Positions 3,525 through 10,062 of a stretch of DNA of 11,461 nt are shown piece after piece; position 1 is the first letter of the stretch, and every line of letters begins with the position of its first letter. Under the pieces are notes generated by a model. That model was not told the DNA's origin and did not search any database. It was given only the letters and a program-made list of their open reading frames with translations. The position numbers were made by a program, and so were the translations under genes. Source of the stretch: a virus; UHGV virus genome UHGV-1556960; one strand, written 5' to 3'.

Positions 3525-3541
3525 AGAATTATTAGAGCAAT
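3525..3541 (-). promoter_or_regulatory. C1 operator (Op99-type, distal, reverse orientation)
   Basis: Plus strand AGAATTATTAGAGCAAT is 15/17 against the reverse complement of ATTGCTCTAATAAATTT. Confidence 0.6.
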
Positions 3542-3601: not shown

Positions 3602-3630
3602 TTGACAATTGCTCTAATAAATTATAGTTT
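3602..3630 (+). promoter_or_regulatory. Promoter with embedded C1 operator upstream of coi-c1
   Basis: TTGACA (3602-3607) is followed directly by ATTGCTCTAATAAATTA (3608-3624, 16/17 to consensus), with a TATAGT/ATAGTT -10-like element overlapping the operator's 3' end. Confidence 0.6.
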
Positions 3631-3862: not shown

Positions 3863-4072
3863 ATGGCTTTCATTCAACCAACCATCGACGACGTTAGACA
3901 TTGCTCTAACGCTTTATCTGTAGACCCTGCCGAAACCGACGCTGCCCGCGCCATTGCTGAACACTACTCAAAGATATCCAATCAGGAGTACCGCATCACC
4001 CAAGACGACCTGGATGACCTCACTGACACAATCGAATATCTCATGGCAACTAACCAGTTAGACTCACAATAA
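3863..4072 (+). CDS. coi: Coi, C1 inactivator, 69 aa
   Basis: 69-aa ORF immediately upstream of c1 on the same strand, with a GTGAGG SD. Size and position match P1 coi. Confidence 0.85.
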   Translation: MAFIQPTIDDVRHCSNALSVDPAETDAARAIAEHYSKISNQEYRITQDDLDDLTDTIEYLMATNQLDSQ

Positions 4073-4115
4073 ATGCACTAATAAATCTATTATTTTTGTT
4101 TGATCCCTCTATAAT
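4072..4115 (+). promoter_or_regulatory. c1-proximal C1 operator variant plus TATAAT -10 (autoregulatory promoter region)
   Basis: AAATGCACTAATAAATCT (4072-4088; 14/17 to consensus, GCAC core variant) overlaps the coi stop codon. A consensus TATAAT lies at 4110-4115, and GGAGGAGG precedes the c1 ATG. Confidence 0.5.
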
Positions 4116-4182: not shown

Positions 4183-5034
4183 ATGATAAATTATGTCTAC
4201 GGCGAACAACTGTACCAGGAGTTCGTCAGCTTCAGGGATCTCTTTCTAAAAAAAGCTGTTGCACGCGCCCAACACGTTGATACAGCCAGCGACGGTCGTC
4301 CTGTACGCCCGGTTGTCGTTCTACCGTTCAAAGAAACTGACAGCATTCAGGCTGAAATTGATAAATGGACTTTAATGGCGCGGGAACTGGAACAGTACCC
4401 AGACCTCAATATCCCAAAGACTATTTTATATCCAGTGCCTAACATCCTTCGCGGTGTGCGTAAGGTTACAACTTATCAGACAGAAGCTGTGAACAGCGTC
4501 AACATGACCGCTGGCCGCATTATTCATCTGATTGATAAGGACATTCGCATCCAAAAAAGCGCGGGGATCAATGAGCACAGTGCGAAATACATAGAGAACC
4601 TGGAAGCAACAAAAGAGCTAATGAAGCAGTACCCGGAGGATGAAAAATTCCGTATGCGCGTACACGGCTTTAGCGAAACAATGCTGCGCGTCCACTACAT
4701 TTCCAGTAGCCCTAACTACAATGATGGTAAATCAGTTAGTTACCATGTGCCACTGTGTGGCGTGTTTATCTGCGATGAAACTCTCCGTGATGGAATTATC
4801 ATCAACGGTGAATTCGAAAAAGCAAAATTTAGCCTTTATGACTCCATAGAACCGATCATCTGCGACCGCTGGCCGCAAGCAAAAATATATCGCCTGGCAG
4901 ATATTGAAAATGTAAAAAAACAAATTGCCATCACTCGCGAAGAGAAAAAGGTTAAGTCAGCCGCATCAGTTACGCGCAGCCGTAAAACCAAGAAGGGGCA
5001 GCCAGTAAACGACAACCCCGAAAGCGCGCAATAA
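4183..5034 (+). CDS. c1: C1 repressor of lysis (primary immunity repressor), 283 aa
   Basis: 283-aa ORF downstream of coi; size and N-terminus (MINYVYGEQLYQEF...) match P1 C1 as I recall it. Its cognate operator 17-mers are scattered through the window. Confidence 0.93.
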   Translation: MINYVYGEQLYQEFVSFRDLFLKKAVARAQHVDTASDGRPVRPVVVLPFKETDSIQAEIDKWTLMARELEQYPDLNIPKTILYPVPNILRGVRKVTTYQTEAVNSVNMTAGRIIHLIDKDIRIQKSAGINEHSAKYIENLEATKELMKQYPEDEKFRMRVHGFSETMLRVHYISSSPNYNDGKSVSYHVPLCGVFICDETLRDGIIINGEFEKAKFSLYDSIEPIICDRWPQAKIYRLADIENVKKQIAITREEKKVKSAASVTRSRKTKKGQPVNDNPESAQ

Positions 5035-5039
5035 ATTAT

Positions 5040-5057
5040 GCCCGGCATCAACCGGGC
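5040..5057. terminator. Hairpin between the convergent c1 and ant genes (candidate bidirectional terminator)
   Basis: GCCCGG-CATCAA-CCGGGC, flanked by A/T-rich sequence on both sides, between the c1 stop (5034) and the ant stop (5067). Confidence 0.45.
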
Positions 5058-5066
5058 ATTCTTCCA

Positions 5067-6182
5067 TTATTCAGCCGCCACCGGTTTTAACAAGCCAGCA
5101 TCGAGCAGTTTACGCGTCAACCACTGTTGGCCTTTCCCCGTTAATTGGGGCGTCAGCCGTATCTGGTAGCCCTCTTCATCATCCAGCACCACTTCTTTCA
5201 CTGTGAAATATCCGGCGTTTATGTACTGCTGGAACGGCACATTTTTACGTCCACCGGACGCAATCAGAATGCCGTTCTCCCGTAACCAGGCAAACAGCGC
5301 ATTTTGTTTAAGTCCAACGACCTTTGCAAAATTCCCAATCAGGATCCCCTTAGCCACTGATACCCGGTCGGCAAAATCGACTTTGGGGGCTGCGGCCACC
5401 AGCTGCTGATTTAGCTGATGGGCTTTCTGTTCCAGAAGTTGCTTTTGTTCAGCCAGTTCGGCAGCAAGGCGCAGAGCTTCTGGAAGCGTCTGGGGGATTG
5501 CGATCGGTTGCTGTTCTTTTTGTCGGAAGTAGCTGTCTTCCAGTTTTTCAAAGAATGCCCATGCCTGATCGGTTTCGATCATTTTAGCGTGGCGGGCTGC
5601 GCCGCGTTCCGTCCAGAGGATGAGTGAGCGGGCTTTAGGAGAGATAGGATTTTGTGAGTTACTTAAAGTCACCCGCAAATTGTTCAAATCATCTCCAATA
5701 ACTTTATAGAAATGCTTGCCTTCACAAAAACGTTCAGCATTACGGGAAAAGTTCTTCTTGATGTTATCCGCATCTGTCCCATACCCCTTAGCAAGGATCT
5801 TAGTTGTCACTACACGCACTCCCAGCCATTCCAGAACGGGAATTTCATCAGACTGATTCTGAACAACCACCAGCTCCGATTCCTGAACTGAAGGTGCATG
5901 AGTTTTTTCTGATTTAACGTTAGTTGCTTTCATTCTGTGTGCCTCCTTGCGTGTTTCGGCTGCGACGGTTGCGTAATTCAGATGCCCCTGTTCGAGCAGG
6001 TATTCGCGGATATCAGACAACAGAATGCGGTGAACAGCGTTCTTGTCCTTTCTCCGGTAAAGTTGTTTGGTGATCATGAAGTAGTTGGCAATAACGCCCG
6101 GTATATCCCTGGTACTGATACAGGATGTGTGCTGTTCAATTGCCTCAATCATTTCTTCACGGGTGACTAATGACGTTCTCAT
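5067..6182 (-). CDS. ant1: Antirepressor (Ant1/Ant2-type), 371 aa, with an in-frame internal start giving a nested 288-aa product
   Basis: The C-terminal region (...FADRVSVAKGILIGNFAKVVGLKQNALFAWLRENGILIASGGRKNVPFQQYINAGYF...) looks like a phage antirepressor KilAC/ANT domain, and the middle resembles a Bro-N/ORF6N-type domain. The start overlaps the icd stop (ATGA), with AGGAGGG in the icd 3' end. An in-frame ATG at 5931-5933 is preceded by AAGGAGG; the two products would be about 41 and 32 kDa, as described for P1 Ant1/Ant2. Confidence 0.8.
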   Translation of the reverse strand: MRTSLVTREEMIEAIEQHTSCISTRDIPGVIANYFMITKQLYRRKDKNAVHRILLSDIREYLLEQGHLNYATVAAETRKEAHRMKATNVKSEKTHAPSVQESELVVVQNQSDEIPVLEWLGVRVVTTKILAKGYGTDADNIKKNFSRNAERFCEGKHFYKVIGDDLNNLRVTLSNSQNPISPKARSLILWTERGAARHAKMIETDQAWAFFEKLEDSYFRQKEQQPIAIPQTLPEALRLAAELAEQKQLLEQKAHQLNQQLVAAAPKVDFADRVSVAKGILIGNFAKVVGLKQNALFAWLRENGILIASGGRKNVPFQQYINAGYFTVKEVVLDDEEGYQIRLTPQLTGKGQQWLTRKLLDAGLLKPVAAE

Positions 6183-6400
6183 AGTCCCTCCTGAGCAGAA
6201 GCGTTAACAGGGAGGCACCAGTAACTGAGAGAGTTGCGCGAATCAGTGGAAAAGCGGGCAGAGAAAATGCAGGGAGCGTCAGGAAGCTGAGAACGGGCCT
6301 CATCTTCTGTCGGTGCAATAACGAAGTGATAGTGACGTTTCTGGCAGGAATAGAAGCGCCAAATGAATTCAGGATGAGTTGGGGTAGGGACAGTAGCCAT
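6179..6400 (-). CDS. icd: Icd-like small protein (cell division inhibitor family), 73 aa, translationally coupled to ant
   Basis: 73-aa ORF with an AGGAGG SD 8 nt upstream; its stop overlaps the ant start by 4 nt. Architecture matches the P1 immI icd-ant pair. Confidence 0.65.
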   Translation of the reverse strand: MATVPTPTHPEFIWRFYSCQKRHYHFVIAPTEDEARSQLPDAPCIFSARFSTDSRNSLSYWCLPVNASAQEGL

Positions 6401-6430
6401 AATGGCAGCCTCCTTTGACTAAGTTAAGGA

Positions 6431-6720
6431 GCTACCGCGTGAGGTCTCAATCTCAATGGCGGTAGCACTGACTGGGTTGAGACTACCGGCGTCAAAGGGA
6501 ACCGGCCTGCCTTTCGGCAGCCCAGCCAGCACTACCATTGATTTCGGAGCTAAACGCTACGTATGGCTGTGCGATGGCATGACACAAAAAAAGACGCTTT
6601 CGGCGTCTGTGTCGCCTTTGACATTATCCGGGGTCTCAATCCCGGCACCCGTTTTACTGAGGTGCCTGATAAGCATAAACCGAAAATGCCTCAAGGCGCA
6701 AGAGGTCAGGCTCAATGTAA
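6431..6720 (-). ncRNA. Leader/small-RNA region of the icd-ant operon with c4-like antisense features; exact RNA ends not determinable
   Basis: On the minus-strand transcript: a hairpin with UUGAGAC in its loop (plus 6628-6645), an intrinsic terminator (plus 6585-6608), the complementary GUCUCAA (plus 6477-6483), and an 8-bp-stem hairpin with AUUGAGAUUGAGACC in its loop (plus 6431-6466) about 30 nt before the icd SD. Confidence 0.4.
6585..6608 (-). terminator. Intrinsic terminator inside the icd-ant leader
   Basis: Minus-strand RNA AGACGC-CGAAA-GCGUCU followed by U7. Confidence 0.55.
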
Positions 6721-6739
6721 CATCGGTAGTTAAAAAACA

Positions 6740-6756
6740 CAATTTATTAGAGCAAA
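6740..6756 (-). promoter_or_regulatory. C1 operator at the head of the icd-ant operon (Op51-like function), just after the pacB stop
   Basis: Plus strand CAATTTATTAGAGCAAA is 15/17 against the reverse complement of the operator consensus. Confidence 0.6.
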
Positions 6757-6759
6757 TAT

Positions 6760-8244
6760 TCATTCATTAAGCCATGCCAGAGCTTCATCAACCTGCGCTT
6801 CGTCTTCGACGCTAAGCACTTCATCCTGGGGAACATAATCCGCCAGCATAGCGAAACAATATGTATCCCAATGGTCTGGTGAGTGCAGGTTGAGTTTTTT
6901 CTTCATATCCTCCTTACTCATCACCTTCCATTGACCTGCGGAGTTAATCCCTACAGGGATTTTCGACGCTTCCTCAATAGTTTCATTACCCTTATCCAGT
7001 CTCATACGACCAGATTTTACGGCCTCTGCGGCTTGAACGTTGGCATAAGCACGTTTATCAAAGTACAGGCTCTTATCTTCACGGCTATGCATCTTTTTAC
7101 CCCAGCGTATACGCTGTACGGTAATACCATAATACTCGTACATCAGATCCGCCGTTGCTTTACCCAGGCCATCGCCGTCTATCGCTATGGTGATATTGGG
7201 GAATCGCTCAGGATTACATTCTGCGAAAATTTTGGCGGCAAGCTGCGTTTCTGTAACGTCTGTGTATTCCAGCATTCGATAGTTGATTACACGGCGTTTA
7301 TTTCGCTGGCCGGACACCATCATGATATTGATAACGGACTTATCCCGTCCTGTACCACCAGCAACGTCCACACATGCAAGCCAGCCCCATCCTTTGGCAA
7401 TCTTGACTTTCCGCCGCGTCGCACGTTCAACCTCATCACGTCCAAGAAGGAATCCGTCCTGTGATTTAGGGAATAGGCCGCGTACCTTAATCATGTACAT
7501 AGGGTTATCACGCCCGCCGTACTCCGCCAGCTTCATTTTGATAAATTCTGGCGTTACCAGCGGTGATTCCTCACTATTAAGCGTGATCGCCGTATAAACG
7601 CCATCTGGGTTACCAGGACGCTTGGCCAGTTTATGGTGAGTATCGTAGAAATAGCCGCTTGGGCGTGTAGGCTGTGACAGTAATAAGATGCGGTTATCCT
7701 GTCCGGTAAGAGCACCGGTGATGATACCGAAAGCTCTATCACTGACACCGGAGGCTTCATCGATAATATACAGAAGATGATCTGCGTGTTCACCGGCGAG
7801 AGCTTCTTCACTTCCCAGACGAAAGCCCTTCGGTACTACAGTCCATACACCTTTACCAGTAACCTCATAGAAAGCGGTTTCTGTCAGAACAAAATAATCA
7901 GCAAGCCATGGAAAACGGCTGGTGGCAGTAGCCCAGTTTATCTTGATGTACTTGAATATACCGGTCATTACCTGCTGAATTTTGTTCGCAACGATAATGG
8001 CTCGGGCACCGGGATACATGATTATGAACAACATGATCATGATAGAAGTCATGTCTGATTTCCCGGTACCGTGGCCAGACGAAACAGATGTCTTGCTACC
8101 CTGTTCCTGCACAGACTCAATAATCAGATCCTGCTGCCAGGTAGGTGTTTTGCCGAACAAAACATCAGCGGCCGCAATCCAGTCATAACGATATAGCGCC
8201 ACCAGCTCGCGCCAACGTGGATCCGTTACGCAACTTCTGGCCAT
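6760..8244 (-). CDS. pacB: PacB, terminase large (ATPase/nuclease) subunit, 494 aa
   Basis: 494-aa ORF directly downstream of pacA with a 1-nt stop/start overlap. Walker A-like GHGTGKS and Walker B-like [10 protein letters not shown] motifs are present. Size matches P1 PacB. Confidence 0.9.
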
Positions 8245-10012: not shown

Positions 10013-10062
10013 CGACGAATATAATACCCTCGATTAAATAAATGGCAATACATTAGAGCAAT
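10013..10062 (-). promoter_or_regulatory. lpa promoter with overlapping C1 operator
   Basis: Minus strand ATTGCTCTAATGTATTG (plus 10046-10062; 14/17) overlaps a TTGCCA -35, with TATTAT as -10 after a 16-nt spacer. Lies between the stop of the 347-aa ORF and lpa. Confidence 0.5.

Follow-up and report, generated by a model that had tools for sequence, protein, structure and literature searches.

Does the antirepressor gene of a P1-like phage-plasmid give rise to one protein or to two, and is its translation tied to that of the short gene in front of it? The question is raised by UHGV virus genome UHGV-1556960, of which a stretch of 11,461 nucleotides was analysed, hereafter called the window. 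On its minus strand, the antirepressor gene ant follows the short gene icd and contains an internal in-frame ATG behind a second Shine-Dalgarno (SD) sequence. Our analysis makes it likely that this locus is an intact, C1-controlled antirepressor operon of the P1 immI type, present as a second copy between pacB and c1, in which two proteins are encoded by a single frame. Direct support comes from the sequence elements themselves, their homology to P1 and their conservation, purifying selection on both parts, and the co-variation of the C4 antisense RNA with its targets. The features are collected in Table 1.

Throughout, statements on P1 are based on its GenBank annotation and on secondary citations. 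The curated P1 record places icd at 48470-48691 (222 nt), ant1 at 48688-49731, with a 4-nt overlap, and ant2 at 48937-49731, that is, 249 nt (83 codons) into ant1. The same 249-nt offset is found in the canonical immI of Escherichia phage RCS47, and it is to this phage that the window is 98% identical over positions 4900-6800. The window operon resembles immI (c4-icd-ant1/ant2) of P1 and P7 in having a C1 operator upstream, a two-loop C4 RNA, a1/b1 sequences upstream and a2/b2 at the icd ribosome-binding site (RBS), as well as a 73-aa icd, the ATGA overlap, an ant2 start at codon 84 behind AAGGAGG, and a homologous N-terminal extension and KilAC C-terminus of Ant. It differs in its location, the pacB-c1 spacer in the window and the interval between sim and kilA in P1, and in the centre of Ant, which in the window is an ORF6N domain without counterpart in P1 Ant1.

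Table 1. Features of the ant locus in the window, with their positions, strand and the basis of each assignment
Feature	Position	Strand	Basis or remark
Whole inserted immI-like module (~1.7 kb)	5035..6759	-	Between pacB stop codon and c1 stop codon
c1 repressor, presumed Ant target	4183..5034	+	Convergent on ant; NCBIfam phage_rep_C1 equivalog, 611 bits
GC-rich hairpin between convergent ant and c1 stop codons, likely bidirectional terminator	5038..5059		Terminator scan
ant1, 371 aa, 42.0 kDa (predicted), ATG start	5067..6182	-	Pfam PF10543, PF03374; BLASTP against P1 Ant1
ant2, 288 aa, 32.3 kDa (predicted)	5067..5933	-	In-frame start Met84; 83-codon offset as in P1 and RCS47 canonical ant2
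KilAC ('ANT') domain, aa 259-360	5408-5103	-	Pfam PF03374
ORF6N domain, aa 117-201	5834-5580	-	Pfam PF10543
Ant1 N-terminal extension, aa 1-83, followed by linker	within 5067..6182	-	Comparison with P1 Ant1
ant2 SD AAGGAGG, codons K79-E80-A81 of ant1	5942..5948	-	-11.4 kcal/mol, top 0.26%
ATGA overlap of icd stop and ant1 start	6179..6182	-	ant ATG 6182-6180, icd TGA 6181-6179
CCUCC tract (6215-6211) in icd, predicted to pair with GGAGG (6191-6187) of ant1 SD	6186..6215	-	Minimum free energy (MFE) fold
icd, 73 aa, ATG start, upstream cistron	6179..6400	-	NCBIfam phage_ICD_like, 49.8 bits (cut-off 25)
icd leader with C4 targets	6409..6450; a2 TTGAGAC 6450-6444; b2 GTCAAAGG 6419-6412	-	Loop complementarity
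C4 recognition loops	b' CCTTTGAC 6498-6491; a' GTCTCAA 6483-6477	-	Exact complement of targets
C4 antisense RNA	6455..6542	-	Rfam RF01695, 75.4 bits (gathering score 45), E 1e-13, full-length match
isrK-like leader RNA	6587..6665	-	Rfam isrK, 59.5 bits (gathering score 50)
Terminator-like hairpin and U-run in isrK-like leader	6608-6592	-	Terminator scan
C4 target copies in isrK-like leader	a1 6639-6633; b1 6622-6615	-	Complementarity to C4 loops
Putative sigma-70 promoter (TTGAGG, 17-nt spacer, TATCAG)	6666..6694	-	Sequence reading and alignment with P1 P1c4/P51b
C1 operator-like site TTTGCTCTAATAAATTG, positional analog of P1 Oc4/Op51	6740..6756	-	15/17 match to operator consensus

Overlap of icd and ant1

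The original prediction had proposed that the icd stop overlaps the ant start in an ATGA, with an AGGAGGG embedded in the 3' end of icd, and both elements proved correct to the base, the ant1 SD lying at 6192-6186. To place this arrangement among its relatives, viral and genome contigs were scanned, which gave 91 homologous places in 86 loci; the icd TGA overlaps the ant1 ATG this overlap is kept in all of them save one (90/91). The window Icd protein is 80% identical to that of P1, with an omega (ratio of non-synonymous to synonymous change) of 0.07 between the two. Within the 3' part of icd, the MFE fold pairs a CCUCC tract with the GGAGG of the ant1 SD, and the helix continues over the ant1 AUG. 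A consensus helix at the ant1 SD and AUG is common to the window and P1 lineages, with one compensatory pair and several wobble changes.

The conserved overlap is most readily understood as a device that makes ant1 expression dependent on icd translation, as the analogy with P1 and with the isrK-orf45-anrP operon of the Salmonella prophage Gifsy-1 suggests. For P1, the GenBank note describes icd as 'apparently required for expression of ant'. In Gifsy-1, mutations have shown translation of the antirepressor to require an upstream open reading frame (ORF) that overlaps the antirepressor gene through an AUGA (PMC4825925).

The overlap might, however, reflect mere genome compaction, with ant1 initiating on its own SD and icd translation not being required. 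Two observations weigh in this direction and against coupling: ant1 has a strong SD of its own (-10.8 kcal/mol), so that coupling to icd need not be obligatory, and the helix that would sequester this SD is not significant when compared to shuffled sequences (z = 0.4), with a single compensatory pair across lineages. Because of this, an unmasking of the helix by ribosomes can be proposed only as a possible step of the coupling. Against compaction stand the retention of the overlap in 90 of the 91 places, the P1 annotation and the Gifsy-1 mutations, together with the fact that C4 targets the icd RBS only, and not that of ant1; since C4 acts there alone, any control of Ant by C4 requires coupling or polarity. 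We therefore regard compaction as unlikely, and translational coupling of ant1 to icd as the preferred reading.

In some pacB-c1 modules (L019, L020, L024, L037, L048 and others) icd begins with GTG (cattGTGgct) and not with ATG, behind the same SD; this may be a way of tuning the translation of icd, and hence of ant.

A probable second start within the ant frame

The in-frame ATG at 5931-5933, for which an AAGGAGG at 8-nt spacing and a 288-aa product had been claimed, is present exactly as described. It is codon 84 of ant1, 249 nt into the frame, and this 83-codon offset equals that of the curated ant2 of P1, so that the likeness to the P1 Ant1/Ant2 pattern, also part of the original prediction, is supported by direct homology. 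As for the expected masses of about 41 and 32 kDa, the second agrees with the value computed for Ant2, while the first is slightly off from that of Ant1 (Table 1).

The strength of the start signals was scored as the energy of the duplex with the anti-SD of 16S rRNA upstream of every ATG, GTG and TTG on both strands of the window (1134 codons; mean -1.5 kcal/mol, standard deviation 2.5). The starts of icd (-11.6 kcal/mol), ant2 (-11.4) and ant1 (-10.8) rank in the top 0.18%, 0.26% and 0.44%, respectively, a three-start pattern that is not due to chance. Among the 21 in-frame ATG, GTG and TTG codons of the ant ORF, a strong SD precedes codons 1 and 84 only, the next best reaching -6.8. In addition, predicted mRNA structure round the ant2 start is lower than in 190 of 200 shuffles, as expected for a site at which initiation is independent.

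The DNA alignment of the window with P1 points to the same segment. Specifically, AAGGAGGCACAYAGAATGA is common to both at the ant2 start, and the alignment conserves the overlap TATGA as well as the ant2 initiation region AAGGAGGCACA[C/T]AGAATGA. When the initial 270 nt of ant are compared in 21-nt segments, conservation is highest in the segment running from the ant2 SD to its ATG, with 19/21 identical positions compared to 65% overall. By the precedent of P1, two proteins would be synthesised from the ant frame.

The original prediction had named a lack of conservation of the internal ATG and SD in homologues as a result that would refute it. What we observed does not refute it: ATG84 and AAGGAGG are both invariant in 61-62 distinct N-terminal coding sequences, which fall into two lineages differing at 35% of nucleotides. 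The three codons that form the ant2 SD are free of synonymous changes, whereas such changes occur at 49 of 69 comparable codons. The 83-codon extension in front of Met84 is clearly protein-coding and under purifying selection: between the window and P1, the proportion of non-synonymous differences (pN) is 0.22 and that of synonymous ones (pS) 0.78, the latter being saturated, whereas the two other frames give omega values of 1.1-1.7. For ant, omega is well below 1.

These data must be set against an alternative in which Ant1 is produced in its full length alone, Met84 is an internal methionine like any other, and AAGGAGG is kept for the residues R-K-E-A-H-R-M, causing at most a translational pause. 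Several points speak for caution about a second start. RKEAHRM is indeed conserved at the protein level, and one of the two scan patterns contained it; the sample is thus biased with respect to amino acids, but not with respect to the codons used. The family is also very narrow: an exhaustive HMMER search, for which the first 100 aa served as query, yielded only 16 representatives (50% clustering level, 1.84 billion proteins), so that the evidence for conservation comes in essence from two lineages together with recombinants. The outcome of the test on synonymous sites is marginal (P ~0.03-0.07) and hence suggestive only. In addition, a deletion in one variant that persists in databases, P0050, has joined RKEA to RKLC and thereby removed Met84.

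On the other hand, two products are listed in the annotation of the P1 homolog, and a P1 Ant1-Ant2 dimer, a complex that antagonises C1, has been reported (PMC8198154, PMC8546580). Moreover, codon 84 is the only site of the ORF at which an SD in the top 0.3%, an ideal spacing of 8 nt, an open local structure and an ATG come together, and a recombination junction falls exactly at Met84, as described in the next section. On balance, synthesis of Ant1 alone appears very improbable to us, and a nested ant2 start is the reading that we retain.

Mosaic structure of Ant

Compared to P1 Ant1, the window protein is a mosaic relative, the homology not extending over its full length. Residues 1-100, which include the 83-residue extension, are 57% identical to P1 Ant1, and the last ~140 residues, the KilAC C-terminus, are ~95% identical, while residues ~110-225, with the ORF6N domain, are unrelated to the centre of P1 Ant1, which has no ORF6N. 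Because of this difference, a complex of window Ant1 and Ant2 with C1 is an extrapolation from P1, a reservation that applies to the proposed mode of action, and C1 is best described as the probable target of Ant by analogy.

The window-type extension is joined to an ORF6N-type body in 75 places and to a P1-type body in 15. When loci with the two body types are compared (L075, L079, L082 and others against the window), divergence begins right after Met84-Lys-Ala, from which it follows that the Ant2 start is a recombination or module boundary. Such a boundary fits the view of Ant2 as a self-contained unit and of the extension as an add-on. An AlphaFold2 model, built from a 13-sequence alignment, was too poor to bear on this view (mean pLDDT 47), with confidence confined to the ORF6N domain and values below 50 for residues 1-112.

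Other members of the mosaic set include P0046 and P0048, the latter a protein of 467 aa with both central regions. In two hybrid proteins, P0033 and P0034, the N-terminus matches Pfam BPP1_LPA (late promoter activator Lpa) and is fused, at 'DIREYL', to the last part of the Ant1 extension together with the Ant2 start; they may be deletion derivatives that have lost pacA, pacB, c4 and icd. A further protein, P0029 (138 aa, 112 member sequences; L090 4001-4417, E. coli chromosome JBTLQA010000001.1), shares with the Ant1 extension just the first ~70 residues of the latter, at 72% identity, and has a different N-terminus in front of them. It adjoins genes for ProQ-like, SSB and DUF927 proteins and is accompanied by neither c4 nor icd. 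Owing to this unrelated mobile-element context, P0029 and its relatives were set aside as evidence on the nested start; the Ant1 extension may be an independent domain.

C4 antisense RNA and its targets

In P1, C4 is a repressor of ant synthesis (PMC12197685). The C4 RNA of the window and its targets in the icd leader are exactly complementary over 7 nt and 8 nt, and b2 overlaps the icd SD AAGGAGG (6415-6409), a layout matching the annotated a2 and b2 of P1. The immI of P1 and the canonical immI of RCS47 have different loops, each with matching targets, so that with the window included co-variation is perfect; the specificities read TTGACAG/GTTAGTGA in P1 and TTGAGAC/GTCAAAGG in the window. 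This strong co-variation argues that C4 control is functional in the window module, with a specificity of its own.

Across P1-like elements at least five variants of the 'a' element (TTGAGAC, TTGGAAC, TTGACAG, TTAGCAG, TTGGYC) and eight of the 'b' element were recorded, each variant being matched by the loops of its own c4, in some cases through G·U wobble (L004-L089). In all seven contigs with two modules that could be parsed, the copies differ in at least one C4 recognition element. Twenty-four loci had appeared to be devoid of C4 control, a result rejected as a failure of the exact-match parser, since inspection showed a c4 with G·U wobble pairs.

Putative promoter region and isrK-like leader

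Five C1 operator-like sites were found in the window, compared to 0.03 expected by chance. The one upstream of the operon, TTTGCTCTAATAAATTG, is unchanged in L085 and L031 and is a putative C1 operator controlling the operon promoter, as in immI of the P1 type. Three others lie in the cra-c1 stretch (3525-3541, 3608-3624 and 4072-4088), and the fifth (10046-10062) is just downstream of lpa, adjoining the start of the DUF968 gene.

The putative promoter extends to where the isrK-like RNA begins. A promoter scan found nothing above threshold upstream of this RNA; because the promoter is below the scan threshold, its proposal relies on the P1 alignment. The window isrK match is a homolog of the P1 a1/b1 leader: the P1 region matches Rfam c4-a1b1, and isrK only below threshold. 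Unlike the P1 leader, that of the window is fully isrK-like and includes a terminator hairpin. Given this hairpin and its U-run, a short, C4-titrating RNA could be released.

Similar elements occur in Gifsy-1, where an RNA of the isrK family, equipped with a terminator, precedes a short ORF whose stop overlaps the start of an antirepressor-like gene through an AUGA. There, however, the short IsrK activates in trans by remodelling the long mRNA, and a nested Ant1/Ant2 pair is not described (PMC4825925), whereas the window carries a separate, strongly scoring C4 RNA with the loop and target logic of P1. Since the isrK-like element of the window carries copies of the C4 targets, a role other than that of IsrK is possible.

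A last alternative, that the module is a decaying immI duplicate, a non-functional passenger whose start signals are merely inherited, could be prompted by the canonical immI that RCS47 already has and by patchy public annotation ('ant' only in RCS47), but it is hard to credit. All ORFs are intact, omega is well below 1 for ant and ~0.07 for icd, the C4 loops co-vary with their four target sites to a new specificity, the C1 operator is retained, and 302 plasmid records hold at least 80% of the module.

Proposed mode of control

An intact operon of the immI type would work as follows. Transcription would begin downstream of the C1 operator and pass through the isrK-like leader and the C4 RNA gene. 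The processed C4 RNA would pair by its two loops with a2 and b2 in the icd leader and, because b2 covers the icd SD, would block icd translation. Where icd is translated, ribosomes would be brought to the ATGA overlap and there either open the helix hiding the SD and AUG of ant1 or re-initiate, switching ant1 on. The second strong and structurally open SD, at codons 79-81 of ant1, would allow independent initiation at Met84. By analogy with P1, Ant1 (42 kDa) and Ant2 (32 kDa) would then jointly inactivate the C1 repressor.

Relation to known modules and implications

The Ant1/Ant2 design with icd coupling is known from P1 and is not a new mechanism; the locus is a mosaic in a non-canonical but common position. 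Part of the region has been noted before: a second c4/icd region is mentioned for D6-like elements (pYU39_89; PMC6799933), and for pTZ20_1P and RCS47 Venturini et al. (PMC6906374) noted, without analysing it, an insertion of 'ant plus two short orfs' in the pacB-c1 interval. In the passages of these two accounts that were consulted, the domain swap, the nested ant2 start, the icd overlap and the C4 specificity are not described. The more interesting aspects of the locus are the second module with its own C4 specificity, the isrK-like leader with a terminator and the domain swap at the Ant2 start.

As a tentative idea, and one about which we remain doubtful, the pacB-c1 module could be, rather than a redundant copy, a second and independent antirepressor circuit that has a C4 'lock and key' of its own, a leader acting as a sponge and a portable extension, within a set of diversifying immI modules. 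Should this be true, the isrK-like leader, released in its short form, could sponge C4 and tune derepression, and the 83-residue Ant1-specific extension would be a portable adaptor, swapped whole at Met84, that partners Ant2 bodies of the ORF6N or of the P1 type. With combinatorial a/b specificities, immI modules would then form a diversifying system of inter-phage recognition and anti-immunity.

P1-like phage-plasmids, which often carry resistance genes, frequently have at least two immI-type modules of differing C4 specificity. Multiple immI modules and a recombination boundary at the Ant2 start bear on the evolution of immunity and heteroimmunity in these elements. The practical value lies in annotation: in the RCS47 record the pacB-c1 insertion is labelled 'ant' only, its icd, c4 and ant2 being left out.

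Genomic context

The window belongs to a P1-like phage-plasmid. On the minus strand the gene order is pdcA, a gene for a DUF968 protein, lpa, pacA, pacB (8244-6760) and then the c4-icd-ant module; on the plus strand coi precedes c1, with cra, cre, ref and mat further along. The window C1 is 99% identical to P1 C1 over 222 residues compared. The distance from the pacB stop to the c1 stop is 1,725 bp, compared to a spacer of only 24 bp in P1, and P1 homology ends exactly at the pacB stop and restarts at the c1 stop; the module is therefore a 1.7-kb insertion.

This pacB-c1 site, which is not the canonical sim-kilA/repL position, is common to 57 of the 91 homologous places. In RCS47 (L001, L003), the pacB-c1 module coexists with a canonical, fully annotated immI (c4, icd, ant1, ant2), and such elements therefore hold two antirepressor operons. 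In the plasmid records, the gene tables under the module match name only Icd-like, Ant/KilAC and ash-family proteins; as these tables omit RNA genes, they are uninformative about c4.

The label 'ash family protein' is placed over or next to the isrK/C4 RNA region in the plasmid gene tables (hits H28-H43; window 6456-6770). Two ORFs examined there, 6557-6763 on the minus strand and 6456-6770 on the plus strand, have no NCBIfam or Pfam match, and the label may stem from an ORF called spuriously where RNA genes lie. Finally, a 42-kb viral contig, IMGVR_UViG_2698536372_000019 (L015, L041, L081), contains at least three Ant1-type modules, with two isrK and C4 pairs 1.5 kb apart in L041, which suggests tandem amplification or an assembly artefact.

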